Shown here: piece by piece, positions 6,310 to 49,816 of the stretch
Position numbering within the stretch: position 1 is the first letter of the stretch
Layout: each line of letters starts with the position of its first letter
Source of the DNA: an uncultured Candidatus Saccharibacteria bacterium
Lineage (GTDB): Bacteria; Patescibacteriota; WWE3; UBA101185; UBA10185
Reading direction: 5' to 3'
Length of the DNA: 64,000 nucleotides
NCBI GenBank assembly: GCA_964385105.1
Contig: CAYLMU010000002.1
Span: 122,583 to 186,582, forward strand
Translations under genes and position numbers: made by a program
The notes under the pieces: generated by a model
The model's database searches: none
The model's input: only the letters and a program-made list of their open reading frames with translations
What the model was told of the DNA's origin: nothing

Positions 6310-6375
6310 GGTTTTGTCCTTTCTTTAATATTGTAACTGATTTTAACCTGTAATTAAACGAAAAGTCATTATTCT

Positions 6376-6822
6376 TTAAACTTTTGTGAGCTTGAATGTT
6401 AAAAGGGCTTTTCTTGCTTCGTCCGTTAAATTTTGCTCCAGCGCTTCTTCGGGTGCTATCCACTTATATTCACTATGTTCTTCGCTCAATTTTACATTGT
6501 GGCTTATAGGTGTTGCTTTATAAGTGATAGAAACTAACGGAAGTCCTTTATATTTGCCATCTCCAATCAAAAAACTCTCAACATATGTTACCGTATCGGA
6601 AACCTTGACTAAAATACCGGTTTCTTCAAGCACCTCACGTTCAAGAGCGTTGTTTATATCTTGCCCTAGATCTAGTTTACCACCGGGGAATTCCCATTTG
6701 TTTGCCTGCCATGAATCTGTTTCTGATCTTTTGATAATTAAGATATCACCATCATTATTTATAATTGCTGTCCGGTTTATTAACACAACTCGTGGTCTGG
6801 ATTTTATATAACTTTTTGCCAT
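6376..6822 (-). CDS. NUDIX hydrolase
   Basis: Nudix box GGKLDLGQDINNALEREVLEETGI. Confidence 0.75.
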   Translation of the reverse strand: MAKSYIKSRPRVVLINRTAIINNDGDILIIKRSETDSWQANKWEFPGGKLDLGQDINNALEREVLEETGILVKVSDTVTYVESFLIGDGKYKGLPLVSITYKATPISHNVKLSEEHSEYKWIAPEEALEQNLTDEARKALLTFKLTKV

Positions 6823-6851
6823 GCGGTTATTCTAACACTATAATCGAGCAA

Positions 6852-7595: not shown

Positions 7596-8373
7596 ATTTG
7601 GCTAATTTAAACAAAAAGCCCACTGTAGAAGAAAAAATCACCAAAACCAAAAAATTCAGAAATTGTATGAATCCTAAGGCTACAAGGGCTAATAAGGGTA
7701 AAACATAATCTCTGTAGGTAAATACATATTTGTTAACTTCTGTTTCAATCAATTCTTCTACATTTATTAAATTAGAAAAACCATATTGATTTAGAGGCTG
7801 AAACGTGGGGCTTTGCATTATAAAATTCTCAACCTGTTCACCAACTTCTGACGCGATTAAGTTACCAATATCTATATTCTTATTTGAAGGCTCCATTAGT
7901 ATTAAAGCACCGCCTACAAGAGCAAAAATAAATAATAACCCGCGTGTTGATACCCTTAAAATAATTCGGGGATTAAACGAAATGAGCTGACTTTTTAAAC
8001 TTGAGGCAAAATATATGTCATATGTTATTAAAGTTAACCCGATTATTGTCAGTGCAAATGCATACGTTGGGTTAATTTGCACAACTCTAACAAAAATGCC
8101 TAAACATACCGGAATAGATACAACTATATACTGTTCCCACTTATTCCATATACCAATTGTAAGCGCATAGGTGTATGCAAGAAGTAAAAGTCCAATAGCA
8201 AGCAGAATAACCATATTTGTTGGAGGAGAAAAATAATCTCTTAGTTGTGCATATGCGGCCATTAACGAGGTAAGCAGGTATGACTCAATAAATAATAAAA
8301 GTGCCAGAAATACAGTTTTAATGATGGGAACTATATCTTTTTTTTGAGGAAGGTTTTCTGGCATTACATTCAA
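7537..8373 (-). CDS. hypothetical polytopic membrane protein
   Basis: 278-aa ORF with multiple hydrophobic segments. Confidence 0.5.
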   Translation of the reverse strand: MNVMPENLPQKKDIVPIIKTVFLALLLFIESYLLTSLMAAYAQLRDYFSPPTNMVILLAIGLLLLAYTYALTIGIWNKWEQYIVVSIPVCLGIFVRVVQINPTYAFALTIIGLTLITYDIYFASSLKSQLISFNPRIILRVSTRGLLFIFALVGGALILMEPSNKNIDIGNLIASEVGEQVENFIMQSPTFQPLNQYGFSNLINVEELIETEVNKYVFTYRDYVLPLLALVALGFIQFLNFLVLVIFSSTVGFLFKLAKSTGFFQIEKEVVEREVLKF

Positions 8374-8390
8374 TTATGCTCAATAAATGA

Positions 8391-8951
8391 TTAGAGGGCA
8401 AGTAAAATTACAACCGCAATCGTTAATAAGCTTAGTTCAATAATTAATATAGGGCTTGGACGCAGGTAAATATCGCGAATCCAGTTTTCGTTGCCGTACT
8501 TTTTTATTGTTTCTTTAAGTTCTCTCGGATTCCATGTTGAGAAAAGCTTTTTATGTGTAAACTTTCCTTCTGGTGTTGTGAAAAGTTTAATTCGCTTGTG
8601 TGATAAAGGCCAGAACAACTTCATTCCCCAGCCTGTATTAAAGGGCATTATGTCATGCAGTAAATGTGCCGTTATGTTAAGTGTAAACGCTGTACCTATA
8701 ATTTTACCGAAAATTAAGTATACAGCTATAGCTATAGGGATGTATATGGCCGGGTAATGAGTATACTCACCGTGAAATCCCTGAATCTTACCACCTATTC
8801 TTCCCCGTTGAAAAAGTTCAATAGGTGTGTCAAAATCAGGCAAAAGACCAAAAATAATATTTAAAATTATAAATGCGGGAGTTAACGGTACATCAAAGTG
8901 TGATGAAACAAAATATGATATTAAAACACTCATTCCTATATCCCAGAACAT
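8391..8951 (-). CDS. membrane-bound metal-dependent hydrolase-like protein (YdjM/DUF457-like)
   Basis: hydrophobic 186-aa ORF with HLLHD motif. Confidence 0.4.
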   Translation of the reverse strand: MFWDIGMSVLISYFVSSHFDVPLTPAFIILNIIFGLLPDFDTPIELFQRGRIGGKIQGFHGEYTHYPAIYIPIAIAVYLIFGKIIGTAFTLNITAHLLHDIMPFNTGWGMKLFWPLSHKRIKLFTTPEGKFTHKKLFSTWNPRELKETIKKYGNENWIRDIYLRPSPILIIELSLLTIAVVILLAL

Positions 8952-23359: not shown

Positions 23360-24151
23360 ATGTTTTGGATTAGAGTCATTTTCAGGTTACTAAAGTTAGG
23401 TCTCATTTTGTTTGTATTCGTATACATTATGGGACTATTGGCAGAACCTATTATTTCAATTCCGCTGCCGGGTTTTTTGTCGTTTCTTGAGCCCATCAAG
23501 TTTCTTGCTATATGGGGAAACAGAGAACTCGTTAATTCGGGTTTCTTACCAAGGCTTCTTGGAACAACAACGTCTCAAATTGTGGCTGTTCAAGGCCCTT
23601 TGCAGACATTGGGTCAGTTTGTAGTAAATTTATTCACTACCCCCGGAGGCTGGGCCATTTTATTACTTATAGTGATTTTATGGCTACTTACGGGAGGACA
23701 TCGAAACTTAGGCGGTCGGGTTCGGGGTGCTTTGGATGAACGAAATATTCCGGTTGGAATTTTGGTACTGGCGCTAATTGTGCTTTTGTTCCTCTATTCC
23801 CAAGGTGGAATGCCGTTATTAATTAGTAACCTTATTCCGGCAGGAATTCTGGTAATAGTTTTTGTGGTACTGGCGAAATTTCTGCCCGATATTGCCGGTT
23901 GGATCGGAGAAGTAGCAGGTGCAATTGTTACGTTTTTGCTGGTTGGGTTTGCAGGACTGATATTAGTTCTATCCGCTCTATCAGGAGCAGGCATGTCGAT
24001 TGGTTTTTTTAGTGCCTTACCTATTCCTGGTATGAACTGGGTGGTGGCACTAAGCCGCGAGATTGGATCAATGTTCAGTGCAACATTCATCCTTTTAGTA
24101 ACAATTGTAATTGGTGGCATATTAACAATACGGAGAAGATTAAATGGCTAA
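23360..24151 (+). CDS. hypothetical polytopic membrane protein (GC-rich island)
   Basis: 263 aa, about 7 predicted TM segments; higher-GC codon usage than flanks. Confidence 0.55.
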   Translation: MFWIRVIFRLLKLGLILFVFVYIMGLLAEPIISIPLPGFLSFLEPIKFLAIWGNRELVNSGFLPRLLGTTTSQIVAVQGPLQTLGQFVVNLFTTPGGWAILLLIVILWLLTGGHRNLGGRVRGALDERNIPVGILVLALIVLLFLYSQGGMPLLISNLIPAGILVIVFVVLAKFLPDIAGWIGEVAGAIVTFLLVGFAGLILVLSALSGAGMSIGFFSALPIPGMNWVVALSREIGSMFSATFILLVTIVIGGILTIRRRLNG

Positions 24152-25421
24152 GAAAAAGGCAGTTTTGTTTATAGGTGTGTTGGTTGCCTTACTTATAACT
24201 TTGGCAGGATGTTCAACCAAACTTGAAAAAGGCACTTTGCTATATAAATCTGAACAAGAGGCACTTAACAGACAAAATCCTGTTACAACGGCACAAGAAT
24301 CAGATTTAATGGCTGTTGAGCAAGTTAGCCCGTATGTTGCAAAAGTTACCGTATACAGCGGGATTAATGCTCCAGAGGGTGAGGTTGTTTATTATGCTTA
24401 TCTTCCTGAAGACAGCGTTGTAACACAACCACAAGAGAATGTTGCAGAGCAAGTACCACAGCCACAAGTTGAACAGCAAAATCAAGAAAACCAAAGTGTT
24501 GAAGAATCACCACCGCCGCAAGAAGGTACACCACTTTATGGCAACGTCGAAGATGCCATAAACGGAACAAACCCTCTAAGTACGTTGAGTGATACCGATG
24601 TTGTGATTGTAAGCAATTGGGCTAACCAAGAAAACAACATTGGCTACACCCACATAACCGGACCTGGTCGAGGTGCAACCGGTTTGTATTTTTACTACCG
24701 GATCCCGAATGGTGGGAATTCTAATATTTTCACTGAGACTTTTTCGGGGTTTAGATTAAGCGGTTTTCGTTTAGATGAAATTTCTTGGGGGCTGATTGTA
24801 GCATTTGTATTAGAGGCTCTTGTTATCTATGTTCCAATTCGTCATTATGTTTTGAGGAAAAACGTTCCCGATAATATTCTTATCAAAGTTGAAAATCCTC
24901 AAACTCAAGATGGCTTTGAGTTAGATTGGGTCACTGCGGAACTGCGGTATAGATTATCAACGAACCCTGACGAAGCGGAAGCGTATGAACGTATGGGAAA
25001 GGATGAGGTAATTGATCAAATTCGCATAGCCGTAAACAGGTTTATATACCAAATAACCAGCCAAGTCCCGCTAAAATTTGTAAATGCTTATCTTATCCGG
25101 GAAATCTCTTTGGATAATCCCGGGTTAGTACTCCCGGACGTTGGGATTGTTCCTCTTTCGTTTACGTTTAAGGAATCAAATATTCCACCGGAGTACGAGC
25201 AGTACTTACACGCAGAGACAGCGGCTAGAGAAAGGGGCAGACTGATAAATGATTTATCAGACACGGCAGGTATTCCGCGAAACCTCGCTGCTTTAGTTCA
25301 GATTGCTCAGAGTAGTGAAGGCACAATTCAAGCCTATCTTGCCAACGTATTATCTGGGGGTCAATTTACTGATAATATGTCCGAAGATTCCTCGGATGAT
25401 GAAGTTGAATCGGAGATATAA
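24144..25421 (+). CDS. hypothetical lipoprotein (GC-rich island)
   Basis: signal peptide with lipobox LAGCS; Q/P-rich linker. Confidence 0.55.
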   Translation: MAKKKAVLFIGVLVALLITLAGCSTKLEKGTLLYKSEQEALNRQNPVTTAQESDLMAVEQVSPYVAKVTVYSGINAPEGEVVYYAYLPEDSVVTQPQENVAEQVPQPQVEQQNQENQSVEESPPPQEGTPLYGNVEDAINGTNPLSTLSDTDVVIVSNWANQENNIGYTHITGPGRGATGLYFYYRIPNGGNSNIFTETFSGFRLSGFRLDEISWGLIVAFVLEALVIYVPIRHYVLRKNVPDNILIKVENPQTQDGFELDWVTAELRYRLSTNPDEAEAYERMGKDEVIDQIRIAVNRFIYQITSQVPLKFVNAYLIREISLDNPGLVLPDVGIVPLSFTFKESNIPPEYEQYLHAETAARERGRLINDLSDTAGIPRNLAALVQIAQSSEGTIQAYLANVLSGGQFTDNMSEDSSDDEVESEI

Positions 25422-25424
25422 CAA

Positions 25425-25883
25425 ATGTGGATTTTAATGGATATAGTATTCGCGTTTACCATTATAGGGACTACTCTGTTTATGGCAATTGGTGAACGCT
25501 TGAAAATGCAAGACAATGTAATTTACAGGTTCATATCTATGATGTGGAATAGGCTAAATCTCGTAATTTGGTGGCCATCGATTCAAAAGTATCTCTATAT
25601 TGTCATAACCTACATGACAATAAAAAGACTTTTGTTTTACACACTTACATCAATTGCGAGTACGCCATACTGGTTTGTATTAGCTGAGGTAACATTACCT
25701 CCATTACCCGGAGCACCTCTATCATTTGCATCCTGGTTGGTGCTTACTGTTATAGTGTTATTAATGGAAGCAATTGCGTGGACGAGGCAGACAAAGAATA
25801 AGATGCTAAATCCGGTATGGGTACCACTTCTGTATCTTGCAATTGCGTGGAGAACAACACTTTTGATTTTTCAAAGGTTCTAA
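25425..25883 (+). CDS. hypothetical membrane protein (GC-rich island)
   Basis: 152 aa, about 4 TM. Confidence 0.5.
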   Translation: MWILMDIVFAFTIIGTTLFMAIGERLKMQDNVIYRFISMMWNRLNLVIWWPSIQKYLYIVITYMTIKRLLFYTLTSIASTPYWFVLAEVTLPPLPGAPLSFASWLVLTVIVLLMEAIAWTRQTKNKMLNPVWVPLLYLAIAWRTTLLIFQRF

Positions 25884-26072
25884 TTACACCTCATTAAAAG
25901 GAGAAGATAAACCCGAACCTCAGCTCACATATGAAATATTCAATCGAAAAATTCATGCGTGATCTCAGGTTCGGATCTTTTTCAAGCTTATGATAATTCG
26001 TAAGTTTGAAACGAGATAATACAAATCATAAAAATAAATCAATTCACAAGAATTTGTTAAAAGGAGTGAAAA

Positions 26073-28325
26073 GTGAATAGGTACATTGAAAATCTAATCA
26101 GAAAAGTTGAAGTAAACTCAAGAAAGCTCACACGAAGGGGTTTTTTTGGATTATTGGTTATTAGTTTATTGGTTTCTGCGGGTTACTGGTATTTACCTAA
26201 AGCTGTAACTATTTCTGATGAAATGGATAGTTACTTGTTTTATGGAGTTGTGAGTCTATGGATTGTGTGTGGCTTATATGTTTTTGTTGGTGTTTTAAAC
26301 TTAAGGCGTATAAATCAGTCAGAAAATGTATTTTTTCATTTTTTGAACGCCCTGGATTTTTCGCCACTTGATAACACACCGCAGGATAAAGAGAAGAGTC
26401 GAAACAAATCGCCACTTCTCCTAGACGATACACAACACCGTATCGCTGAACAAAGAAGTTTTATAGCCATGAACAAAAGATTTCTGGTTATAGCATCTTT
26501 GCTAATTGTGAGTATGCTTGTTGTCGTGCTGCCAAGCTTGCTGGGATTTCTCGTTAAATTGAGCATATTCACTGTTATAGCGATTGTTTTTGGCATGTTG
26601 CTTTTAGTACTTTGGATAAATGGCCGCCTTAATATTGCTTTTATAGATAATATTAAGAATAAACTGGTTGCATTAAAATCCATTGTTCAGAGCAAATATC
26701 GTGGCATTAAAAAGCATGCACGCTTTGTGACCTGTGTTGTTCTTGTATTGGCTGTGGGTTTCTATTTTTTGGCAAGAGAAAAAAATTGGAATTTTACATT
26801 GCTAAACAATTCAACGGGTCTAAAAAATGCTTCAGTTGAGGTACGGACTACACCAACACCTTTTCCGCAGTTCACCCCGCAAGTTATAGTTGAACCAACA
26901 GCTGAGCCAGAGCCTTTTGGTGAAGTGCTTCAGCCAAGTGTGATATATGACGTAGACGAGGTAAATGAATTACGCGGAAACATTGCAGCAGAAACTCATT
27001 CTTTGCGCAATATCATTGTAGAAGTATTCAATACTTTTACAGGTATTACCACGGATGCATACAATAATCCAGATGTGAAATATGTTGATTGGAACCTTAT
27101 TGTTGAAAACAATGAGGAATCGCAAGATCACTCACATAATGATCTGGCAGGGTTAAATGCGTTTGTTGCAGAATGGGCAGATGATTTTCGGCGACGCCTT
27201 GATGATGTATTTTCACAAGACTCGCAAGGTGTTGTGTTGAATGAAGAGAGTCATAACCTCTACACCCAACAAACCCGTTTATTGCATCAGGCAATGAATG
27301 ATTTGTTTGAGTTGGCAGTTGCTCTTCAAAGTCTAAACGATCAGCATCCAAACTGGCATTTAGCATCTCAGAGGTTGCACATTTACAACAATACTGCTTT
27401 TCAATACAACAAAGTGGTAAATGATAATGCAAACCTTGGAGGTGCACTTCTTCCGATTTTCGATACAAGTGAAACTTCATTTGTAAAAGTATTGGAAGAA
27501 ATTTACAAGCGGGAGAATAGGGTTGTAATTACGGAGCCTGCACCGGTTCAACCGGCGGTTCCCGTTATAGCAAATCCGATTTTTGAGCTTGAACAAGCAG
27601 CCGGTCTGGGTACACCATCAGCCACATCACAAGACTCAGAAACTCCTATGCCAACTCCGACTCCTGTTCAATACGGAGTTGCAGGTCCTGCAGCATGTGA
27701 ATTTCCGATAGGAGGAAACGCTCGTTACCTAGACGTGGACTTAGTTGATACCAATGGTGATGGTGACGTAGAAGCAATTCCACTTCCTGCAAGTGGGGGT
27801 ATTGAAAAAGCTGTCACTTTAATGATGAAGGAACCCGCAATGTATATAGGGAACATCCAAGGATGCGGTCACGTTGTAGCTTTTTATTTAAATGACGCTC
27901 AACCGACATGGTTTTTGCTTGAAAGACCACCGGGAGTAAATCCTGGTGAGTGCATGATTGCAAATTACTTTGAAGCGGGTGACCCGTTTGATAATAGAAT
28001 TTACAGGGCAGACTGCAATACCGGAGAAAAAGGTGTTCAGATATTTCCGGCAAACGAAACGGTTACAACGTTTGATCCTGTTTGTGATACAAGTAGTACT
28101 AGTTTTCTTTCAGGGATTGGTACGGGATGGTCATTAAACGGGATTTACGATTCAGGACGTGGTGTGAGAGCTAGGTGGTTTGTGTGTTCTAGTGGACAGT
28201 ATCGTATAGATCTGGAAGGGTATGGATGGTATCTTTCAGATACTGTGCCATCAAATATTCCACAGAATACATGGTATCGCACGGTTCAAGCTAATGGCCA
28301 ATGGGTTGCAATTGTAGCCCAGTAA
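26073..28325 (+). CDS. large hypothetical membrane protein, 750 aa (GC-rich island)
   Basis: several N-terminal TM helices then a large Cys-containing extracellular domain. Confidence 0.55.
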   Translation: MNRYIENLIRKVEVNSRKLTRRGFFGLLVISLLVSAGYWYLPKAVTISDEMDSYLFYGVVSLWIVCGLYVFVGVLNLRRINQSENVFFHFLNALDFSPLDNTPQDKEKSRNKSPLLLDDTQHRIAEQRSFIAMNKRFLVIASLLIVSMLVVVLPSLLGFLVKLSIFTVIAIVFGMLLLVLWINGRLNIAFIDNIKNKLVALKSIVQSKYRGIKKHARFVTCVVLVLAVGFYFLAREKNWNFTLLNNSTGLKNASVEVRTTPTPFPQFTPQVIVEPTAEPEPFGEVLQPSVIYDVDEVNELRGNIAAETHSLRNIIVEVFNTFTGITTDAYNNPDVKYVDWNLIVENNEESQDHSHNDLAGLNAFVAEWADDFRRRLDDVFSQDSQGVVLNEESHNLYTQQTRLLHQAMNDLFELAVALQSLNDQHPNWHLASQRLHIYNNTAFQYNKVVNDNANLGGALLPIFDTSETSFVKVLEEIYKRENRVVITEPAPVQPAVPVIANPIFELEQAAGLGTPSATSQDSETPMPTPTPVQYGVAGPAACEFPIGGNARYLDVDLVDTNGDGDVEAIPLPASGGIEKAVTLMMKEPAMYIGNIQGCGHVVAFYLNDAQPTWFLLERPPGVNPGECMIANYFEAGDPFDNRIYRADCNTGEKGVQIFPANETVTTFDPVCDTSSTSFLSGIGTGWSLNGIYDSGRGVRARWFVCSSGQYRIDLEGYGWYLSDTVPSNIPQNTWYRTVQANGQWVAIVAQ

Positions 28326-28329
28326 CTAA

Positions 28330-29625
28330 ATGAGGAAACTTATGTACACACGTGAAAGAACCGAAGAAAAAAATCTTTCCCAGATTTTTTTCACAACTGT
28401 GATTCTAATGACCCTGATAGTAGCTTTGTATCTGCTATATCAGCGAGTCACCACTGAACACAACCAAGGTTCTATGGTAGTAATTGAGACGAGTGAAGCA
28501 GGCAACAACGAGTTCACACAAGAATCAAAGCCTGTTACAATTCCGACTCAAGCAGCATCATTTGAACCTACTATTCAACAGCTTGATGTCTTGTCTATGG
28601 GTCAGTTTGGTGGTTTGAACTTAACCTTTGAGCCAAGCATTAACATGCTTAAAGCAGAAACTGTCACAGTTTTACTACCTTACAGTCCCCCTCTAGTTCA
28701 GAGCGATGAGATCTCTCTAAAGTGGGGATCGTTTATCGCAGCTTTCATTGCAGGCAATCAGCCTGGGATGACAGATCTTGGTACTTGGTTTCTTCGAAAC
28801 TTGCAAAATGTTGATGTAGAAGCCGCAAGAATTGAATTAGTTCTTGCTATTGAAGGAACATCGCGATTTCCGGATAATCCATACTTGATTCACACAAGTG
28901 AAAGATCGAGTCAGAATCCTGGAATAAAAATCAAGTATATTCCTCAATTAGCAAATGCAATTGTGGCGTTGAGAGCTCTTGGTGCTGACGATATAGCAGA
29001 CACGCTGAAATCCGACGCATTAGCAGCTCTTGAACTTGAAGCTCAAATCATAGAGCAAGAACGCCAGGTACAATTGGCGCTACAAGCTCAAGCCTCAGCA
29101 GATGCCGAGCAAGAGCAAAATCAGGCGTTTGAAGCTCCTGAATCGGTTGAATCTCTCCAAGCCGCTCAAGTAACCGAACCGGTTGATGTACCTGTAGAAA
29201 GCACTGCTTCTCAAACCGAAAGCGGAATCGTTGACGGTAGCACATCAGACACCCAAGAGGTAATAGAATTACCTAGAAACCTCAACATTCCTCCTGGCGA
29301 TGTAGACAGTAGTTCGCTTGGTTTTTCGCCATACGGAATTTTAATGGGAGTTTGGGCATTGAGAGATTTCTTTGAGGGTAATCCGGGTATAACATATTGG
29401 GAAGTAACCAACATGGAATATCTGAGCCCTCGCGGCGCTTCTACCGGAGTTGCCGACTTCTTAGGCCTAAGTGAAGTTAAACTGTGGTATGTAACCATGG
29501 TCGGTCACAGGCCTGATGGTTCGGTAACAATTCCTGTGAAAGCAGGACTTTTCTGGTTAGGAGGGTTATCTCCATTTGAGATTGGCGATCAGCTTGAAGT
29601 CAAATCTATTTTGGGATGGCCTTAG
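28330..29625 (+). CDS. hypothetical membrane-anchored protein with low-complexity A/Q/E linker (GC-rich island)
   Basis: N-terminal TM; 5 nt after preceding gene. Confidence 0.5.
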   Translation: MRKLMYTRERTEEKNLSQIFFTTVILMTLIVALYLLYQRVTTEHNQGSMVVIETSEAGNNEFTQESKPVTIPTQAASFEPTIQQLDVLSMGQFGGLNLTFEPSINMLKAETVTVLLPYSPPLVQSDEISLKWGSFIAAFIAGNQPGMTDLGTWFLRNLQNVDVEAARIELVLAIEGTSRFPDNPYLIHTSERSSQNPGIKIKYIPQLANAIVALRALGADDIADTLKSDALAALELEAQIIEQERQVQLALQAQASADAEQEQNQAFEAPESVESLQAAQVTEPVDVPVESTASQTESGIVDGSTSDTQEVIELPRNLNIPPGDVDSSSLGFSPYGILMGVWALRDFFEGNPGITYWEVTNMEYLSPRGASTGVADFLGLSEVKLWYVTMVGHRPDGSVTIPVKAGLFWLGGLSPFEIGDQLEVKSILGWP

Positions 29626-29793
29626 TTAGTAAATCGTAAAAGATTTGTTGTTGAACCGGTAAATCATGCAAGTAAGCATATACCGGTTCAACTTTCCATT
29701 TTGGGCGTGTTGGTTTAAACATACTCAAAAGGGAGAGAAGTTTAAGAAGTACATTAAAAACTCAAAAGCAATAGCCGAAAAAAGGTAAAAAAA

Positions 29794-30678
29794 ATGAAGC
29801 TTAATTTTTTAAGGAAGTTTAAAGCAAAAGGTCACAAACTCATCAGGTTTGTAGTTGTTGGTGTAGTGCTTTGCATGGTTTACTTTGTTGTTTCTAATAC
29901 AGATCAACAAATGAGGGCTAATACATTAAAATCAGCACAAGTTGGAAGGTTAGAAAAATTTACAGCTGTAGCAATATTGCCAACTCCAACCATGGTGCCG
30001 CTATTAGCCCCTACCCCGCTTACATTACCGCAGGTTGAGTTTAATAGTGTAGAAGCCTTGTTGGAATTTGATATCCAAACGATTGAAATTGCAGAGCTTT
30101 ACTTGGGGCAAGTGTATGACCAATATGGCCAAGTGCATTCCGCCGCAGCAAATATAAGTGAGCTTGAGATTCCGGTTAGTGAAATTGCATCACCTTGTGG
30201 CGCAGGAAGGAATCTTGTTCGCACCGGGTACGGTTTTAACTGGTATCCGGGCATGAACTGGAGAACTACCGGGGCTAACTACCACCCGGCTCTTGATGGC
30301 AAGTGTGATGATCAACTTGAGATTTATTCGGCGTCAAAGGCGGTTATATGGCGTGTTTTTGAAGATTTACAACTAAGCGACTATAACAGTGTAGCTTTTT
30401 GGTCTTCAGGACGCACCTATGTCGCGTTATCCTACGCACACGTATGGTTTGACGGCAAATTACAGCAAGTATTGTTGGTTTTTGTTTATGGCCATTTACA
30501 ATACCCCCAACCGGGAGAGGTATTTCCCCAAGTCGGTGATATTGTTGAACAAGGTCAGTTATTGGGGTACATGGGTAAAACCGGAAGAGCTACTGGGCCG
30601 CACTTGCACTATGGTATAGGTATTTTGCAAGATGCTCATACGATTTACTGGTTAGACCCTTTAGACTTAGGAGCATAA
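29794..30678 (+). CDS. M23-family metallopeptidase (LytM-like)
   Basis: C-terminal LLGYMGKTGRATGPHLHYGI; N-terminal TM. Confidence 0.7.
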   Translation: MKLNFLRKFKAKGHKLIRFVVVGVVLCMVYFVVSNTDQQMRANTLKSAQVGRLEKFTAVAILPTPTMVPLLAPTPLTLPQVEFNSVEALLEFDIQTIEIAELYLGQVYDQYGQVHSAAANISELEIPVSEIASPCGAGRNLVRTGYGFNWYPGMNWRTTGANYHPALDGKCDDQLEIYSASKAVIWRVFEDLQLSDYNSVAFWSSGRTYVALSYAHVWFDGKLQQVLLVFVYGHLQYPQPGEVFPQVGDIVEQGQLLGYMGKTGRATGPHLHYGIGILQDAHTIYWLDPLDLGA

Positions 30679-30684
30679 AATCTA

Positions 30685-31464
30685 ATGAGACCAAGTTATA
30701 CGGTGGTCGCCTTCTTAGTATTGATACTGATATTTATTGGCATTTTGGCACAAATCTTTAGTGTTGGGAAAATGGGGTTTGGGTATAAAAATAGCAACGA
30801 ATCAAAACCCAACCGTGTAATTATACCAACTATAGAAACACCATCAATTGAGCCAACAACAACAAGCCCTATATTCGAATGGCGAGCCAGAATGTTTGAT
30901 GAGCAGTTTGGTGAACAAATTGTTGGGTTGCACTTAAGCGTTGAGTTAATTAGCGTTTCAGTAGAAACTCTAACAATTGTGAACCGCCAAGAAGCTCCCG
31001 AAACAGGTGAAGTATTTGTTGTTGACAGCGAAAGTTGTGGTTTGTCAGTTTTAAGCGCTGTTGAACTTGCTCGAACTATTGCCCTTGAACGTGGTATCCC
31101 GTGGAACATCTGGGGGCCATTGATTTTGTCTGAAAGTTCATACAGACAGTTTGTTTCAGATGCATACGGAAATTGTACCGTTATTGAGAATTCTATTGGA
31201 GCTTATTGTCTTGCTCAAGTGTATATGGCGGTTCATCCCCAGTACACCAAACAAGCTCTTGCAGACCCCCGTGCATGTTTAAATGCCGGAGCAGACATTT
31301 TGCTTCAAAAGTATTCCCGAACTCAAGATTGGCATGAAGCAGTTGCCCGGTACAAAGGCATAACTCGTGCTGACTTTACCCAACATCGGGATTACAAAAT
31401 TTTTAACAATTACCATGCTGCCGGAGGATTCATTGAACCTTCGGGTTATTGGATTTCATGGTAG
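30685..31464 (+). CDS. secreted hypothetical protein, possible SLT-like lytic transglycosylase
   Basis: TM/signal; ILSESSYRQF (catalytic Glu-Ser) and IGAYCLAQVYM resemble SLT ES...G.MQ blocks. Confidence 0.35.
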   Translation: MRPSYTVVAFLVLILIFIGILAQIFSVGKMGFGYKNSNESKPNRVIIPTIETPSIEPTTTSPIFEWRARMFDEQFGEQIVGLHLSVELISVSVETLTIVNRQEAPETGEVFVVDSESCGLSVLSAVELARTIALERGIPWNIWGPLILSESSYRQFVSDAYGNCTVIENSIGAYCLAQVYMAVHPQYTKQALADPRACLNAGADILLQKYSRTQDWHEAVARYKGITRADFTQHRDYKIFNNYHAAGGFIEPSGYWISW

Positions 31465-31518
31465 CAATTACCCCTCGCTTGTGTGCTTATGTTTTGGCAT
31501 ACAAAAAGAGGGGTTTTT

Positions 31519-32105
31519 TTATATTTCTAAACTGTGCCAAAGTGCTATTGTGCCATAGGTTTTATACGGTTCCCATTTTGCCACAACTTCAGCTATAGCC
31601 AAATCCGACGGATCTTTTATATCATAAACTTTTTCAAATCCTTTTTTTAAGCCTAGATCACCATATGAAAAAACATTTCGGCAGTCCACTTCCCTATTCC
31701 TTTTACTTTTGTAAGTTCAGCAATTACTTCATCATCACTTAATTTCGCAAGATTATTTAGTTTCACTTCTCTGTTGGCCACCTTTTCGGCCAAATCTTTT
31801 ACATATTTTACTTTAGCCCAAGACAAGCCTAAATCTCTTAGTTCCTGATCTGAAATTTTTAGAATTTGCTGTGGCGTTGCTATGTTGTTTGAAAATAAGT
31901 TACTAAATCTTTCTTTAATTGCACGGGCGGCTTTTCCTGATAATTGTTGACCGATTATATTGCTGCACAGATGCGTAAAATAATATTTTTCATCAATTTT
32001 ATCGCCAAACCATTCGTTATAGTTAACATGCTTTGCAACCACATAAATTTTAGGATCATTTTGTTTAAAGTGGTTTATAATTTTAGTAAGCTGTGCATTT
32101 TTCAT
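31519..32105 (-). pseudogene. HhH-GPD DNA glycosylase (AlkA/3-methyladenine glycosylase II-like), disrupted by a frameshift near 31652
   Basis: ORF 31653-32105 ends right after the HhH motif LTKVKGIGKWTAEMF; a different frame 31519-31651 continues GDLGLKKGFEKVYD...AIAEVVAKWEPYKTYGTIALWHSLEI, the expected C-terminus. Confidence 0.6.
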
Positions 32106-35901: not shown

Positions 35902-38900
35902 TTAATAAATTAAAGAAACTGTTGGAAACTCAAATTCTTTTGCAATCTCAACAAAAAAATCCGATTTAACTTTTAATTTTTTTGTTTTATCTAAATCACT
36001 TAAATATCCCTTATATGCAATGTTAAGAGCAGCCTGAACATCGGCATCACTAATGTTTTGACAGTCTATGAAGGGGCATATAAATAAGGCACTATTACCA
36101 CGATTTTCGTAAAATGTTTCAAAATTCAAATTATTAATTTTTAGATATTCCGCATCTTTGGGTGGACGCATAAATTCATATACGCATGTCTTCAATTTTG
36201 ATCCCGGTATATTTGGACCTATAATATCTTTGGAAAAAAACAGTAATTTCTGACCGTTTATATCTGCCTTATAAATATTAGAAGAATCAACATATTTAGA
36301 TGTTTTATATTCTCTTGATGTATCAATATACTTTAAGGGTGAACGTCTGCATTTAGAGCATGTTTGACTTGTTCCATATGCACTTATGTGATTTCCAACT
36401 AATTGGTTTTTGCCCCAGACTTTTTCGCGCTCAGATTTATCAGCATCATTTCTGCCAATGACATCAGTTTTTTTGATTGAGTGATAAATTTTTGCTACTC
36501 TATTACCTGCAGTCTCAAAGGCCGATATCTCATGCTCGTATATTGGTTTTGCATCATATTTCAAAACTAAATCATGAATACGATTTCTTATACCATTTTG
36601 TGCAGATTTTCTTATTCTGCTTAATGCTGAATTAGGAACTGTGAATGTTCCGGTTATTTGCTGATTTTTTATGATATCAATATGATCTCTTATTTTTCTA
36701 ATTTCAGCACTGTAAATAAAACCAGTGTCTACTGTAGTTAAAGCACCTTCAGCAGATAATACATAATATGCCACACCATATTCACCTATATCAAGTCCTA
36801 AATATTTTTTTGCTATTTCAATATTTTTATTAATTTGCGGTTTCTCATTTGGGTTAATATTAAATGGTTGATTAAAATATATCGATTGACTTATCTCAAT
36901 TAGCTCAATTTTACCAGTAAGAAAGTTACAATCAGCATTGTATGTTATTTCTTTAACAATTTGAGGTTCGTCTCTTGTTATATGAACCTTACCCTTTCTT
37001 TTTTGGTCACTCATGAACCATTCAAGGAATTGTCGCTGGTACCTTGAAGTTTTTATTTGGAAAAGATTTATTAACTGTGAATTCTCATCTATTTTGAATT
37101 TATTTGGACTCTTATCAACAGTCTTTTTTACGTTGTATATTTCAAGTTCTGTGAATTGGTTTTTCGTGTTTAGATTGGGAAAACCAACAAAGAAAGCATA
37201 TTTGGTCTCATCTTTGTTTGAAGAGTAATATATGGGGAATTTCTTTTCAGAATTCATTACCTGTGCAACTTCTCGAATATTAAATGTTTTCCTACTAGTC
37301 TGGTTAAAAATACCTCTAACTTCAGAAAATAGAATTGAATTTAATATATAAAAGACTGCATTCTTATCTAATTTGCCGTTTGTTAGAAAAAGAATATTTT
37401 TTAAATGATCAAAATATTTATGAGTAATATTCAATTCAATAAAGTCAAAATTATGTAAGTGCACAAACCATGATGTGGTAAGTTTTTTCATTTCGATATA
37501 ATCAATTCGCTGCGCTGAGTTTAAGTTTTTCCAATCTTTAGTATCATCTAACTCATTGTATAGTTTTTCTAGTTCTGTGTTGAAGTCGCTAATAACCATT
37601 AATATATTTAATATTTTTCTATTTTCTCTTTTTGAATATTTTGATTTATATATTATTTCATATTTTTTGTTCGGAATTTTACCGCAGTATCTTACAAGAA
37701 TTTTCTCCACTTTGTTTTTATACATATTTGTATTAAGTTTATTGTGTAACCTTGAAAGTTTTTCTAATTGGTATATGAAGTAATCACTTTCAACTAATTC
37801 CATTTTTTGTGATGTGTTCATGATTTCGTTTTTTATTATCTCTACAATCTTAAAAGCTTCATCACATCTAATTGCAAAGTTGATATACTTTGAGTTTAAT
37901 TCTTTTTTTGATTCACCATAAAACTTTGGCAAGTATTGGACTTTTTTAAATAGGTTTGGCAAGATCTTATCAATGGTTATCTCTGTTAACACTATTTGTA
38001 AGTGCTCATCTTGATTAATTTTTTCTGTATTATCTTTTTTGTTACCTTTATTCTTTTTTCCTATTTCTTTAGCAAGATTATACTTTTTATTATAGAAAAG
38101 TTTGCCCGACTGGAAATGTCTATTAGTTAATGATTTGATGTTTCCCAGTAATTCAACATAGGTGTTAAATACATCTATGTTAGTTGTATTTTCCGCGGCT
38201 TCTAGTGCAATTAATATTAAAGACTCTAAATCCTTTAAATCACTTTTTTGTACTTCCTCTAGTAGCTCCTGCAATTCGCTTTTTTGTTTAATTATTTGTT
38301 CATGAGATTTAGCTAAGTAATTATTGTAGTTTGAATACCAAGATTTCAGTTTACCCGAGAAAACACTTCTATATTCAGCCCATGTAGTTGCTAACATTGG
38401 TTGTGGCAGTAATTTGGCTCTATTAGATAGAAAGTCCAATCTCTTTTGTAATTCAGCTTCATTACCGACCCATAAGTTTCCAGTAGATAACATTTCATCA
38501 AAGTACTTTTGAGTGTTGCTATTTCTTAAATCATTAATTACTGCGTTAAAGTAGTTTGATAATGCATTTCCATTACTACCGATTCCCAGAAGGTTTTCTG
38601 TATCGTTATTTAAAGCAGTTATCCTACTAATGGCATCAAGTGGCGTCAGCCCTTCAACTAAATTCAAAGAAGGATATATATAAAAAGTAGTACTATATGA
38701 TATATTTTCCGAGTTTATTTCTGTATAGCCAAATGCTTTAGCCAAAATTTCATTCTGTTCTATTTTAGATTTACCAATTATTGAATGTGCTGTATTTTCA
38801 ATTATATTAGTAATCTCTTTGTCATTTTTAAAATCGTCTTTAACAAATTCAAGTAATTGTTTTTTTATTGATTTAGGTGTGCTTGTAGTTTTAAATACAC

Positions 38901-39303
38901 TCTTTAGAAACACTTTTTTAATAAAGCTTACTTCTATTAACTTATTGCGCAAGTCTTCCGGAATTGTGTTAAATGACAGAACATAGGGGTTTGGAATGTT
39001 AGATAAGTCATGTATTAGAGCAAACATTTCCGCAGTGCTCTGCTGAAAAATTACACCAGCACGTAAACTGTCAAGCCAAAAATCTAATAATGAGTAAACT
39101 TTTTGATGTGATAAGTATTGATCTATATTACCTATGCCATCTAAATAAATTGAATCGTGATGAATAGCACCTGATAATGAATTGAAAAGTTCTTGATCTT
39201 GTGTTCTAAGTGGGTATTTTATAGTTCTCTTTATCTTACCACCGACATATTCTGCTCTTTTTGCATGTAGTGTGTATCCTGTTTTACCTAAATATTTTTT
39301 CAT
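35902..39303 (-). CDS. type V CRISPR effector, Cas12 family (Cas12d/CasY-like), 1133 aa
   Basis: RuvC-I KYLGLDIGEYGVAYYVL, RuvC-II PIYEHEISAFETAGNR, zinc ribbon TCSKC...CPFIDC, RuvC-III NISDADVQAALNIAYKGY; N-terminal 800 aa without recognisable domains; abuts the CRISPR array; cas1 lies on the array's other side. Confidence 0.8.
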   Translation of the reverse strand: MKKYLGKTGYTLHAKRAEYVGGKIKRTIKYPLRTQDQELFNSLSGAIHHDSIYLDGIGNIDQYLSHQKVYSLLDFWLDSLRAGVIFQQSTAEMFALIHDLSNIPNPYVLSFNTIPEDLRNKLIEVSFIKKVFLKSVFKTTSTPKSIKKQLLEFVKDDFKNDKEITNIIENTAHSIIGKSKIEQNEILAKAFGYTEINSENISYSTTFYIYPSLNLVEGLTPLDAISRITALNNDTENLLGIGSNGNALSNYFNAVINDLRNSNTQKYFDEMLSTGNLWVGNEAELQKRLDFLSNRAKLLPQPMLATTWAEYRSVFSGKLKSWYSNYNNYLAKSHEQIIKQKSELQELLEEVQKSDLKDLESLILIALEAAENTTNIDVFNTYVELLGNIKSLTNRHFQSGKLFYNKKYNLAKEIGKKNKGNKKDNTEKINQDEHLQIVLTEITIDKILPNLFKKVQYLPKFYGESKKELNSKYINFAIRCDEAFKIVEIIKNEIMNTSQKMELVESDYFIYQLEKLSRLHNKLNTNMYKNKVEKILVRYCGKIPNKKYEIIYKSKYSKRENRKILNILMVISDFNTELEKLYNELDDTKDWKNLNSAQRIDYIEMKKLTTSWFVHLHNFDFIELNITHKYFDHLKNILFLTNGKLDKNAVFYILNSILFSEVRGIFNQTSRKTFNIREVAQVMNSEKKFPIYYSSNKDETKYAFFVGFPNLNTKNQFTELEIYNVKKTVDKSPNKFKIDENSQLINLFQIKTSRYQRQFLEWFMSDQKRKGKVHITRDEPQIVKEITYNADCNFLTGKIELIEISQSIYFNQPFNINPNEKPQINKNIEIAKKYLGLDIGEYGVAYYVLSAEGALTTVDTGFIYSAEIRKIRDHIDIIKNQQITGTFTVPNSALSRIRKSAQNGIRNRIHDLVLKYDAKPIYEHEISAFETAGNRVAKIYHSIKKTDVIGRNDADKSEREKVWGKNQLVGNHISAYGTSQTCSKCRRSPLKYIDTSREYKTSKYVDSSNIYKADINGQKLLFFSKDIIGPNIPGSKLKTCVYEFMRPPKDAEYLKINNLNFETFYENRGNSALFICPFIDCQNISDADVQAALNIAYKGYLSDLDKTKKLKVKSDFFVEIAKEFEFPTVSLIY

Positions 39304-39399
39304 TTATTTTAAAAAGCATATTCGAGAAGGAAGAAGGCATTCTAATAGCACAGGCTATTAGGGACTCCCTTTAATAATCGGTATTTGAAGGGTTTACTC

Positions 39400-40040
39400 T
39401 GTTTAATTTCACTTTTCCCCTACAATTCGGGGCTTGATAAATGCCTCTTTGCCTTTAATCCCCTACAATTCGGGGACTTACATGTTCATCATATGCCTTT
39501 AATCCCCTACAATTCGGGGTGAGACTTGTATCATACTGCCTTTAATCCCCTACAATTCGGGGTACCTCTTTTTGACCCATGCCTTTAATCCCCTACAATT
39601 CGGGGTTGCCCTTGTCAGACGGTAGCCTTTAATCCCCTACAATTCGGGGTATCAGGGTTTGGCTTGTAGCCTTTAATCCCCTACAATTCGGGGAAAATGG
39701 ATAAGGATATAGCCTTTAATCCCCTACAATTCGGGGAGACTTTAGACAGTGCTGAGCCTTTAATCCCCTACAATTCGGGGTGTAGCTCCACAGGGTATTG
39801 CCTTTAATCCCCTACAATTCGGGGTATGGAAAACATGGTCATGCCTTTAATCCCCTACAATTCGGGGAAATCCTACGTTGTTTGACGCCTTTAATCCCCT
39901 ACAATTCGGGGCTAGGGTTAGTTCAGTTTGCCTTTAATCCCCTACAATTCGGGGCACAGTTACCGAGAGTAAGCCTTTAATCCCCTACAATTCGGGGTAA
40001 TGGGTGTTCGTTTTGGCCTTTAATCCCCTACAATTCGGGG
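39400..40040. CRISPR. CRISPR array: 14 identical 25-nt repeats (GCCTTTAATCCCCTACAATTCGGGG) plus a degenerate repeat, 18-19-nt spacers
   Basis: repeats start at 39451, 39495, 39538, 39581, 39625, 39669, 39712, 39756, 39800, 39843, 39887, 39930, 39973 and 40016; degenerate copy with a 9-nt insertion at about 39400-39432; all spacers unique; repeat has CCCC/GGGG hairpin at its 3' end; AT-rich flank 40041-40143. Confidence 0.95.
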
Positions 40041-40143
40041 AGTTTACCCGATATATGCTTTATTTAAAGTACAAATTAATATAATATATATATAAATTAA
40101 CCTCATTAATTGGTTAATTACGCGTGATTATAGCATATTTCTT

Positions 40144-41121
40144 ATGCAGATACCTAAAGATCCTGCTTGGATACCATATTTACAGACAGCAACACTAATA
40201 GGAAACGACAAAGTTAATATTAAATACAATGACGGTGAAACTATAATTCATCCATCTAGTACATTGTCTCTTTTAATTTATGGAGATTGCAATGATTTGC
40301 CAATAGAAGTAATTGAAGAATTTGGTAGATATGGTGTTCCTATTATCTTTCATAAAAGAAATATCTCAAAAAATATATGGATAAGTAATGGTCCTCGGGC
40401 TGATAAAAACGACACACTAACTAAGCAAATATTACTTAGGAATGACTTGAGAAGAAAAACATATATATCAAGAGTACTGATTTATAATAAATTTAAATAT
40501 TTTGATGAGTTATTTAATATAAGTATACCTAAGTTAAGTGGAATGACAGTAAGCCAAATAAGAATCACAGAGGCTAAGGTTTCTAGAGTTTATTGGAGAA
40601 GTTATTATAATGGACTTGAACAACCTTCTTGGACTAGAAGGTCAAATAATCCCGTTTCTTTTGCTTTGGATGCATGTTCAAAATTTATTGCAGGGATAAT
40701 TCTAAGATGGATAAGCTATCACCACATGTCACCATATCACGGATTCTTACATATACCTACTGATTATCCAAGTTTAGTATATGATCTTATGGAACCGTAT
40801 AGATACATTAGTGATCTGGCTGTAGCAAAAGCTTATATTGAAAGCAAAACTCAAGACAAAGAAAAGCTTACGGCAATGTCAATTTCTAATTTAAAAGACG
40901 AATTAAATAAAGAAATATATTGTATTCAAACAAGACAATTGCTTAGAAGACAGCAGCTATTGCATGGCATATGTTTAAGTCTACGGGCATACTTATTAGG
41001 TGAAGGTAAAAGATTTATTGTTCCAACAGAAGGTGAAACAAGAAAGGGTAGACGAATTAAAACTAACTTTGTAATCCCAGGCAAGAGTGCAGGTTACACT
41101 AAATTAGTTTTAGGCAGCTGA
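40144..41121 (+). CDS. cas1: CRISPR-associated endonuclease Cas1
   Basis: 325 aa; HGFLH and SLVYDLMEPYRYI blocks; adjacent to the array. Confidence 0.8.
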   Translation: MQIPKDPAWIPYLQTATLIGNDKVNIKYNDGETIIHPSSTLSLLIYGDCNDLPIEVIEEFGRYGVPIIFHKRNISKNIWISNGPRADKNDTLTKQILLRNDLRRKTYISRVLIYNKFKYFDELFNISIPKLSGMTVSQIRITEAKVSRVYWRSYYNGLEQPSWTRRSNNPVSFALDACSKFIAGIILRWISYHHMSPYHGFLHIPTDYPSLVYDLMEPYRYISDLAVAKAYIESKTQDKEKLTAMSISNLKDELNKEIYCIQTRQLLRRQQLLHGICLSLRAYLLGEGKRFIVPTEGETRKGRRIKTNFVIPGKSAGYTKLVLGS

Positions 41122-41221: not shown

Positions 41222-41299
41222 TGGTCGGGGTGGCAGGACTCGAACCTGCGGCCTCACGGTCCCAAACCGCGCACTCTAGCCAACTGAGCTACACCCCGC
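41222..41299 (-). tRNA. tRNA-Pro (anticodon TGG)
   Basis: reverse complement GCGGGGTGTAGCTCAGTTGGCTAGAGTGCGCGGTTTGGGACCGTGAGG..GGTTCGAGTCCTGCCACCCCGACCA. Confidence 0.8.
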
Positions 41300-48396: not shown

Positions 48397-49816
48397 GGAA
48401 ATTGTATTATTGTTTTTGCTTTTTGTTATAACTGTAATTCTACGATTTTCTCAGCTGGGTTATTCACACTATTATGGTGACGAAACAAAAGCGCTGTATT
48501 TAAGAAAAGATATATCAGCAACAGATTTTTTGTTTAATCAGCGAAAAGGCCCTGTTCAATTTTTGGTTGCATGGACAATGGAACAACTCACCGGTGGTTA
48601 CAACGAACTTACTACCAGATTACCTTTTGCACTCGCGGGAACAATATCGGTATTTGTAGTTTATTTGTTGGCAAAAAAGCTATACGGTCGAAAAGTCGCG
48701 TTTTTTTCTGCTTTTTTGTTTAGTTTAAACGGCTTTTTTATAGCATTTAGCCGAACCGTACAGTACCAAAGCTTTTTGTGGCTTTTTGGCTTACTGGCTA
48801 TTTACGTCGTTCTTATTGCCTTAGACCAAACTTCAACCAAAACCAAAAATATTTATTTAAGTGTTTCGGGAGCCTTGTTAGGTCTTGCTTTTTTATCTCA
48901 CTGGGATGCGGTATTTTACGCTATTCCTGTTGTTTTTTTAGTTACTCGTGCTTATTTAAATAAAAAAATCAAATTAACAGGCATAATGTACATTTTCATA
49001 CCCTTTTTTGCCATAGCCGCAATATTTTACATTCCATATTTTTTAAACGGCTTTTATGCGGTAAACTTTCACAACTACATTTTACGCAGGGCTTCTGGAA
49101 GCGACCAACTGCCCTCAAGAAGCGTATTTACATTTAACGTTTATAACCCCTATCTTGTAGGAACTTTGCTAATGACATATGCGGTATTTTCACTAAAAAA
49201 AGGTTTAACTTGGAAAAAATACTTTTTGTTTAGCTGGTTTATAGTTCCGTTTTTTGTGTTTGAGATTATTTTTTCAAATCCCGGAACTCATATTCAAAAT
49301 TACATAATTCCGTTAATTTTACTTGCAGCAGTAGGATTTTTTACGTTACATAATTACTTATTTTCAAAAAACAAAGCTCTTGGATTTTTAAATTTTTCGG
49401 TTATGGCTGTTTTGTTTGTAATGTACTTATTATTTCAAGCTCGATTATATGTTCCGGCACTTAATCAAGGAGAACCGTGGAATAGTATCGCACCTTTAAA
49501 AAATAAGTATCAAATGTTTTTGTATGGATTCCCATACAACCGAGGCTGGGATCAAATTAGAGAATATACAAAAGAAAAGAGTATAAGAAGTTTTGATACC
49601 AACGAGAATGTAGTAATTGGAGAATTTTACTTGCATGGTGTTCCGGCAACTAAACTTGTTGAACCGCAACAGTTACCTCATGCATATATATACATTTATA
49701 ATAATCAGGAAAATAAACATTTTAGCGAAGAAAAGCTTTTAGAATATTATGATGCTGAAATGGAATTTTTTGTTGATGGTGATTTGTCTGCAAGATTATA
49801 TAGGCTCAGAAAGTGA
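48374..49816 (+). CDS. GT39/ArnT-like membrane glycosyltransferase
   Basis: about 11 TM helices, HYYGDETKALYL loop; start taken at MNLSTKNK. Confidence 0.55.
   Translation: MNLSTKNKEIVLLFLLFVITVILRFSQLGYSHYYGDETKALYLRKDISATDFLFNQRKGPVQFLVAWTMEQLTGGYNELTTRLPFALAGTISVFVVYLLAKKLYGRKVAFFSAFLFSLNGFFIAFSRTVQYQSFLWLFGLLAIYVVLIALDQTSTKTKNIYLSVSGALLGLAFLSHWDAVFYAIPVVFLVTRAYLNKKIKLTGIMYIFIPFFAIAAIFYIPYFLNGFYAVNFHNYILRRASGSDQLPSRSVFTFNVYNPYLVGTLLMTYAVFSLKKGLTWKKYFLFSWFIVPFFVFEIIFSNPGTHIQNYIIPLILLAAVGFFTLHNYLFSKNKALGFLNFSVMAVLFVMYLLFQARLYVPALNQGEPWNSIAPLKNKYQMFLYGFPYNRGWDQIREYTKEKSIRSFDTNENVVIGEFYLHGVPATKLVEPQQLPHAYIYIYNNQENKHFSEEKLLEYYDAEMEFFVDGDLSARLYRLRK

Follow-up and report, generated by a model that had tools for sequence, protein, structure and literature searches.

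Knowledge of Cas12d (CasY), the effector of type V-D CRISPR-Cas systems, goes back to 2017 and that of its scoutRNA to 2020; the locus described here is therefore not new in kind. Published descriptions of Cas12d give 26-nt repeats and 17-19-nt spacers, and characterised orthologues perform RNA-guided cleavage of double-stranded DNA (dsDNA) with a 5'-TA/TG (TR) protospacer-adjacent motif (PAM). Both Cas12c and Cas12d depend on a scoutRNA (PMC7889808). KbCas12d (CasY.1) is encoded by a 3378-bp gene and is inactivated by the mutations D827A and E913A; in vitro cleavage is supported by a CRISPR RNA (crRNA) consisting of cuccgaaaguaucggggauaaaggc plus an 18-nt guide, together with scoutRNA1, aaaggguuuccaguuuuuaacuaaacuuuagccuuccacccuuu (bioRxiv 10.1101/2023.12.12.571249 and its supplement). 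The scoutRNA details used below were drawn from this preprint, its supplement and reviews. The locus in question lies in a 64-kb stretch (64,000 nt, here named the window) of contig CAYLMU010000002.1, and with a probability of about 92% it is a chromosomal type V-D adaptive-immunity system of a WWE3/Katanobacteria-like bacterium of the Candidate Phyla Radiation (CPR).

Comparison with KbCas12d and the Cas12d family

Among the relatives of the window effector, P0019 is taken here to be KbCas12d/CasY.1, the experimentally characterised enzyme, since its 1125 aa match the 3378-bp gene and its residues D828 and E914 are one position off those of the D827A and E913A mutants. The window effector has 1133 aa and aligns with P0019 from end to end at 32% identity (E 5e-160), that is, 68% of the residues differ. 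The RuvC aspartate and glutamate, essential in KbCas12d by mutation, are both conserved, D838 and E923 aligning with the catalytic D828 and E914 of P0019. Both loci have 25-nt repeats of the same plan (CTCCGAAAGTATCGGGGATAAAGGC in KbCas12d, CCCCGAATTGTAGGGGATTAAAGGC here), 14 spacers of ~18 nt, Cas1 as the only adaptation protein, and a scoutRNA of common plan (P1, UUCC, hairpin, WU-GCCUU, P1'). The KbCas12d host belongs to Katanobacteria, and the threonyl-tRNA synthetase (ThrRS) of the window points to the same CPR group. The two loci differ in the P2 hairpin of the scoutRNA, which has 5 bp in KbCas12d and 8 bp here, in the lack of a spacer between GCCUU and P1' here, and in gene order, since the KbCas12d scoutRNA is upstream of the array (bioRxiv 10.1101/2023.12.12.571249), whereas here the array is upstream of the scoutRNA and cas12d.

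With the Cas12d family as a whole (NF033951; CasY.1-6, CasY15) the locus shares a profile score above threshold, repeats ending in AAGGC, spacers within the 17-20-nt range and a scoutRNA 5' of cas12d. Within the family the window lies on a thinly sampled branch, where P0002, from locus L035, alone has a repeat and scoutRNA closely resembling those of the window.

The components of the locus (Table 1) are arranged on the minus strand in the order leader, array with 14 spacers, decayed last repeat, scoutRNA and cas12d, with cas1 divergent from the leader. The effector ORF (open reading frame), the array and the cas1 gene beside it had been listed in a first-pass annotation made from the sequence alone, and all three were recovered where it placed them; the scoutRNA gene was absent from its list. 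Its proposal of a Cas12d/CasY system agrees with the curated profiles, the similarity to KbCas12d, the repeat, the spacer length, the Cas1-only module, the scoutRNA and the host. Every type V-D feature that can be tested on a sequence was found (Cas12d profile, RuvC triad and zinc ribbon, repeat with short spacers, scoutRNA, Cas1-only module), and the locus is apparently complete and intact.

Table 1. Features of the putative type V-D locus, with positions in the window
Feature	Position	Strand	Basis
cas12d (casY) effector gene, 1133 aa	35902..39303	-	ORF, Cas12d profiles
scoutRNA core, 45 nt	39327..39371	-	architecture, descriptor, folding, covariation
Degenerate leader-distal repeat CCCCGAATTGTAGGGGAAAAGTGAA	39408..39432	-	exact array parsing
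CRISPR array, 14 repeats + 14 spacers	39433..40040	-	Tandem Repeats Finder + exact parsing
AT-rich leader/divergent promoter region (inferred)	40041..40143	-	position and polarity only
cas1, 325 aa	40144..41121	+	Pfam, PADLOC, alignment to 7cr6

The effector is a divergent Cas12d orthologue

The cas12d ORF comprises 1133 uninterrupted codons and contains all the motifs quoted in the first-pass annotation, namely LGLDIGEYG (D838), YEHEIS (E923), CSKC (C982/C985), CPFIDC (C1076/C1081) and SDADVQAALNIA (D1086/D1088). In a 13-sequence family alignment, D838, E923, D1086, D1088 and the cysteines C982, C985, C1076 and C1081 were invariant, so the D/E/D triad (D838/E923/D1086) of the single, split C-terminal RuvC domain is kept across the relatives, a check that had been proposed.

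Comparison with type V profiles, also proposed at first pass, placed the protein far above the Cas12d cutoff and far below that of Cas12c. The NCBIfam equivalog for Cas12d/CasY (NF033951) scored 789 bits against a curated cutoff of 250, three times that value, and the complete model (positions 1-1180 of 1180) aligned with residues 7-1103. The Cas12c profile NF033950, whose cutoff is also 250, gave 61.5 bits and aligned only in the RuvC region (residues 750-963). PADLOC returned two Cas12d models with 513 and 506 bits, and Cas12c with 102 bits. The earlier statement that the N-terminal 800 aa match nothing must be restricted to Pfam, in which the only relevant match in the whole effector was a sub-threshold Cas12f1-like TNB domain (24.6 bits).

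When 1.84 billion cluster representatives were searched exhaustively with phmmer, 265 relatives passed E<=1e-3 and 160 of them E<=1e-30; the nearest, P0002, has ~35% identity. Identities of 25-36% are the usual spread within the Cas12d family. The fallback offered at first pass, a divergent or new type V lineage, was therefore right about divergence (<=35% identity to any other sequence found) and wrong about novelty: judged by its sequence, the effector is a divergent new orthologue that lies clearly within the known Cas12d family. The identical protein has already been deposited in an NCBI assembly, where it is on a 319-kb contig, and in a Logan assembly (SRR9016296).

Structure prediction, another of the proposed checks, allowed the REC, WED, RuvC and zinc-ribbon regions to be placed. 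The AlphaFold2 model, built on the 13-sequence alignment, had a mean pLDDT (predicted local distance difference test) of 77.7 and a pTM (predicted template modelling score) of 0.68. Taken with the alignments, its rough boundaries suggest N-terminal WED strands and a helical REC lobe at about residues 1-670 and a WED beta-sheet at about 673-818, followed by RuvC-I (D838), a helical linker, RuvC-II (E923), a zinc-ribbon insert and RuvC-III (D1086, D1088); the insert, with C982/C985 and C1076/C1081, would be the target-nucleic-acid-binding (TNB) part. In a Foldseek search the best PDB matches, spanning the entire chain, were Cas12c1 (7vyx, E 3e-26, template modelling score, TM, 0.58) and Cas12c2 (7v94), with TM values of 0.53-0.58 for the two proteins, and CasX and Cas12a were next. 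By sequence, the best solved structure was also a Cas12c (7v93, E 6e-5, RuvC/zinc-ribbon region). Cas12c ranks first because no Cas12d structure has been solved, which leaves it as the nearest solved relative; neither the sequence search nor the fold search of solved structures found a Cas12d entry.

The CRISPR array and its leader

Tandem Repeats Finder reported an array at 39450-40040 with a period of 43 and 13.6 copies. Exact parsing of the minus strand resolved 14 identical 25-nt repeats (CCCCGAATTGTAGGGGATTAAAGGC, 40040->39451), each followed by one of 14 unique spacers of 18-19 nt. The count of 14 given at first pass is thus correct for perfect copies, and the spacers are as short as it had noted, a length typical of Cas12d; with unique spacers between the repeats and cas1 at its flank, the array is not a set of unrelated tandem repeats. 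A further, 15th repeat (39432->39408) is degenerate: it keeps the first 17 nt, corresponding to the hairpin half, and has lost the 3' ATTAAAGGC, the part bearing the AAGGC that pairs with the scoutRNA. A decayed last repeat was present at the matching array end of the related loci L035, L003, L007 and L006.

The comparison set consisted of 31 related loci retrieved from GTDB species representatives. Arrays were found in 17 of them, all with 25-26-nt repeats that end in AAGGC on the cas12d strand and with 17-20-nt spacers. The window array was oriented on the minus strand, the same as cas12d, because its repeat has the polarity of the published KbCas12d crRNA.

Between the first repeat and the cas1 start codon lies an AT-rich stretch of 103 nt (40041-40143). 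The decayed repeat marks the cas12d-proximal end of the array and the AT-rich stretch the opposite one, so both the leader and the acquisition of new spacers are placed on the cas1 side, and the region could serve as leader and divergent promoter, judging from position and polarity only. The polarity of the array, from AT-rich to decayed end, matches the related loci, and a cas1 gene divergent from an AT-rich stretch abutting the first repeat was likewise seen in L006, L010, L014, L015, L020, L021 and L022. An exact search for the repeat in JGI metagenome contigs gave no match.

Although the effectors of the window and L035 share only ~35% identity, 22 of 25 repeat positions are the same in both and the scoutRNA flanks are almost identical. 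Judged by this pair, conservation appears far stronger in the RNA components than in the protein.

A scoutRNA core upstream of cas12d

In the interval that separates the decayed last repeat from the start codon of cas12d, 23 nt upstream of this gene, lies the predicted scoutRNA gene; its core reads 5'-AAGGGAG UCC CUAAUAGC CUGU GCUAUUAG AAU GCCUU CUUCCUU-3' (39371->39327). Its plan comprises an outer stem P1, a UUCC-like junction, the hairpin P2, a 2-4-nt junction with U or A as its usual last base, the conserved anti-repeat GCCUU, and P1'. In the window, P1 pairs 39371-39365 with 39333-39327 (7 bp), P2 pairs 39361-39354 with 39349-39342 (8 bp), and GCCUU at 39338-39334 is complementary to the AAGGC at the 3' end of the repeat. 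The pairing between scoutRNA and repeat is limited to 5 bp, the neighbouring positions being A·C. The architecture is that of the published functional KbCas12d scoutRNA1, and the element is consequently regarded as a scoutRNA gene whose expression and requirement are predicted; the transcript may extend beyond the 45-nt core on either side.

A descriptor of this plan had exactly one hit in the 64-kb window, both strands included, at the position above. At the observed stem strengths (7-bp P1, 8-bp P2), 0.003 chance hits per window are expected from random sequences of the same composition; at its loosest thresholds the descriptor is unspecific, with 0.94 hits per random window. The 51-nt stretch 39324-39374, which contains the core, folds as proposed (-13.8 kcal/mol, z = -2.8).

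Of the 25 loci with a scoutRNA-like core, 24 have it 20-90 nt upstream of the cas12d start, on the same strand. It is just upstream of cas12d in the window and in L002-L008, L010, L012-L017, L019-L022, L028-L031 and L035, irrespective of the side of the effector on which the array lies; the exception is L032, with the order array, scoutRNA, cas1, cas12d. The L035 scoutRNA has flanks nearly identical to those of the window (AAGGGAGUCCC...AGAAUGCCUUCUUCCUU), and in its P2 two pairs are changed on both sides in a compensatory manner, one from A-U to U-A and one from U-A to C-G, and a G-C pair has become G-U.

MAFFT alignments of the scoutRNAs left the helices out of register, because the lengths of the P2 hairpin and the J3 linker vary, and were unusable for a general covariance model. 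For this reason the descriptor search was combined with an alignment of 24 cores built by hand, padded with N and set in a common register. In this alignment 98.7% of 307 cells were standard pairs, a fraction biased upward by the choice of helix registers by eye, compared with 48% in shuffles and 36-50% with slid partners. All 15 pairs change on both sides, and the covariation score was 0.96 (shuffles, 0.18). There are 21 G-U pairs to 2 A-C mismatches, an imbalance that identifies the cas12d strand as the transcribed one. The by-eye registers have far less influence on the compensatory changes and on the G-U/A-C asymmetry.

The window scoutRNA is of a short type, without the 5' GGGTYCCTAACCC hairpin and the extra 3' hairpins found in the Microgenomates/Patescibacteria-type loci L004, L006, L013-L015, L020, L022 and L028. 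A U-rich tract is often found downstream of the closing stem, and boxes resembling TTGACA/TATAAT occur just 5' of the scoutRNA in L004, L013 and L022. In the minimum-free-energy folds of KbCas12d scoutRNA1 and L002:4890-4938, the 5' AGGGUU pairs with AGCCUU instead of the P1 3' strand, which sequesters the anti-repeat. The scoutRNA 5' AAAGGG also resembles the repeat 3' AAAGGC, and both could compete for GCCUU.

The scoutRNA may belong to the cas12d 5' untranslated region (UTR) or act there as an attenuator. It is conceivable, though doubtful, that array, scoutRNA and cas12d form one transcription unit, with the scoutRNA excised from a pre-crRNA 3' tail that is at the same time the 5' UTR of the cas12d mRNA. 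If so, effector translation would be coupled to scoutRNA production, for example by attenuation or processing, and the lineage of the window and P0002 would have a naturally minimal scoutRNA of 45 nt, the size of the engineered KbCas12d scoutRNA1.

Cas1, neighbouring genes and host

The Cas1 protein was recognised by Pfam (PF01867, Cas_Cas1, 53.5 bits against a cutoff of 22.3) and PADLOC (65.7 bits), and it keeps the active-site motifs, with E in RITEAKVSRVYW, H in GFLH and D/E in DLME, when aligned with a Cas1 of known structure (7cr6). Among the ORFs scanned at 29.8-47.3 kb, about 6 kb on each side, cas1 was the only adaptation gene, and no Pfam, NCBIfam or PADLOC match to Cas2 or Cas4 was obtained, which bears out the Cas1-only module described at first pass. 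The scanned neighbours include DoxX-like, glucose/sorbosone dehydrogenase-like, 3-methyladenine glycosylase, HhH-GPD and AHSA1-like proteins and no further cas genes; no integrase or transposase was seen among them. A tRNA-Pro(UGG) gene (41222-41298, minus strand) lies 100 nt past the cas1 stop codon. Housekeeping and repair genes bracket the locus.

The window is part of a chromosome and carries the genes for PheT, ThrRS, a RelA/SpoT protein, histidine kinases, a penicillin-binding protein and six tRNAs. Among named sequences, those nearest to the ThrRS, with 60-72% identity, are from candidate division WWE3 (Katanobacteria) and 'Patescibacteria group' bacteria, which points to a host from WWE3 or another Patescibacteria lineage, in line with the CPR-like host suggested earlier. 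No rRNA gene for confirmation of the host was found in the window. A region of higher GC content (0.39-0.42 at 24000-32000, ~0.34 elsewhere in the window) was observed, and two large ORFs in it, at 26073-28325 (750 aa) and 28330-29625 (431 aa), had no Pfam match.

Most related Cas12d loci are in Patescibacteria metagenome-assembled genomes (MAGs), and a CPR host typifies the family without strictly defining it. L003, L010, L015, L024, L026 and L029 are in MAGs labelled Leptonemataceae, Gammaproteobacteria, Bdellovibrionales or Propionibacteriaceae, labels that could stem from errors in binning or from a genuine spread beyond the CPR. The locus in the Propionibacteriaceae bin, L029, has a GC-rich repeat and a 36-repeat array. 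In a Patescibacteria locus with a 30-repeat array (L022:4962-8622), cas12d is present as two ORFs (4962-7754 and 7969-8622), which suggests a frameshift or a pseudogene.

Spacer matches

Eight of the 14 spacers were scanned against IMG/VR, where spacers 2, 4, 6, 7, 9 and 10 had no match. Spacer 1 matched two unrelated contigs with the 5' flanks AG and AT. Spacer 3 (AAACTGAACTAACCCTAG) matched one tailed-phage lineage (L036, L038, L039, L040) with a TG 5' flank and one unrelated contig with a CC flank. The exact match at L038:4793-4810 (plus strand) is in a 114-aa ORF beside a head-tail adaptor gene, in a phage of GC content 0.445 that encodes terminase, portal and major head proteins. Its TG flank fits the TR PAM reported for CasY15, and this match, indistinguishable from a chance 18-mer, is no more than a lead. 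No spacer matched elsewhere in the window at <=2 mismatches, so self-targeting was not detected there.

Points against a functional type V-D locus and alternative explanations

Several results weigh against the reading as a working type V-D system. The expression and activity of the locus are predictions from sequence, and with a nearest relative at ~35% identity the biochemistry of the effector may differ from that of KbCas12d or CasY15. A simple sigma-70 scan found no minus-strand promoter in the leader. The spacers scanned gave no convincing protospacer, their four independent exact hits being all 18-mers at about chance level, with one TR-type flank. For the scoutRNA, besides the by-eye registers of the alignment, the full 107-nt intergenic stretch is not significantly stable on the minus strand (z = -0.98) and prefers an alternative stem; the plus-strand fold is also not significant (z = -1.59). 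Because of these non-significant folds, the strand and structure assigned to the scoutRNA are based on homology, on the published RNAs of KbCas12d and on the asymmetry between G-U and A-C. A covariance model (R1) built from L005, L012 and L019, of the Saccharibacteria/Vogelbacteria type, missed the window element. R1 recovered its three source sequences, and its best match in the window (48718-48821, E 0.13) is probably due to chance; the model is fitted too closely to a single clade. No Rfam family corresponds to the scoutRNA: at gathering threshold the whole window yielded 6 tRNAs only, and the 951-nt array region gave nothing at E<=1.

Some of these results would also be expected of a type V-D relic without a present role in immunity, for instance one that is unexpressed or has stopped acquiring spacers: no spacer has a convincing IMG/VR target, no consensus promoter was found in the leader, and Cas1 stands without Cas2. 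A relic is nonetheless improbable. The Cas1-only state is normal for type V-D and CPR phages are poorly sampled, the ORF is uninterrupted with every catalytic and zinc-binding residue conserved, and the Cas1 active-site motifs, the scoutRNA stems and GCCUU are intact. All 14 repeats are identical, which is unexpected for a decaying array.

The identity of the effector leaves still less room for other explanations. That it represents a new type V subtype merely resembling Cas12d could be argued from the nearest of 1.84 billion representatives being 35% identical and from Pfam seeing just the sub-threshold Cas12f1-like match; this is very unlikely, given full coverage of the Cas12d equivalog at three times its cutoff, the end-to-end alignment with KbCas12d, an identity range that is normal inside the family, and a repeat type, spacer length, scoutRNA and Cas1-only module typical of Cas12d. 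Assignment to type V-C has in its favour that Cas12c also uses a scoutRNA and provides the best solved-structure matches by sequence (7v93) and fold (7vyx, 7v94), with the RuvC/zinc-ribbon sequence similar too. However, the Cas12c profile score is far below its cutoff and covers the RuvC region only, and Cas12c is the nearest solved relative only for want of a solved Cas12d. Cas12c loci have longer spacers, and against the single 5-nt pairing predicted here, Cas12c uses three repeat:anti-repeat stems of 4-7 bp (PMC11246509). With TnpB/IscB transposon nucleases beside unrelated tandem repeats, the sole shared feature is the same sub-cutoff TNB match. These nucleases have ~400-500 aa and lack arrays and cas1, whereas the window effector has 1133 aa, with unique spacers between its repeats and cas1 at the flank. 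Type V-C and TnpB/IscB together have only the slightest chance of being correct, and they and a new subtype were rejected on profile scores and locus content, in favour of a Cas12d orthologue in a type V-D locus.

Proposed mechanism and significance

The sequence itself establishes which components are present and that they are intact, how they are oriented, and that the catalytic and RNA-pairing elements are conserved. By analogy with the characterised Cas12d enzymes, the type V-D locus is expected to be expressed, to require its scoutRNA, to recognise a PAM and to cleave DNA. Cas1, without Cas2 or Cas4, would insert 18-19-nt spacers at the leader-proximal end, on the cas1 side. The array would be transcribed on the cas12d strand, with pre-crRNA, scoutRNA and cas12d mRNA following in this order on the minus strand, and each crRNA would consist of a 25-nt repeat-derived 5' handle and a spacer, the predicted form being the handle CCCCGAAUUGUAGGGGAUUAAAGGC with an 18-nt guide. 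The GCCUU of the ~45-nt scoutRNA would pair with the AAGGC at the 3' end of the handle, directly adjoining the guide, and Cas12d, crRNA and scoutRNA could together form the active ribonucleoprotein, as in KbCas12d and CasY15. This complex would recognise dsDNA with a short 5' PAM (TA or TG in characterised orthologues) and cut DNA with the single RuvC site (D838, E923, D1086).

What the locus adds to the known family is a defined guide-RNA set for a divergent orthologue and a scoutRNA core that can be located beside cas12d family-wide. As a resource it offers a compact system: the protein has 1133 aa, the guide of 18-19 nt follows a 25-nt handle, and the natural scoutRNA is ~45 nt long. Among the properties that make such enzymes attractive are very short guides and a TR PAM, and diverse orthologues with defined guide RNAs aid structural work and tool development. 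The scoutRNA core (P1, UUCC, hairpin, WU-GCCUU, P1'), for which Rfam has no model, lies beside cas12d in essentially every locus examined, and this comparative result may outweigh the locus itself in usefulness.

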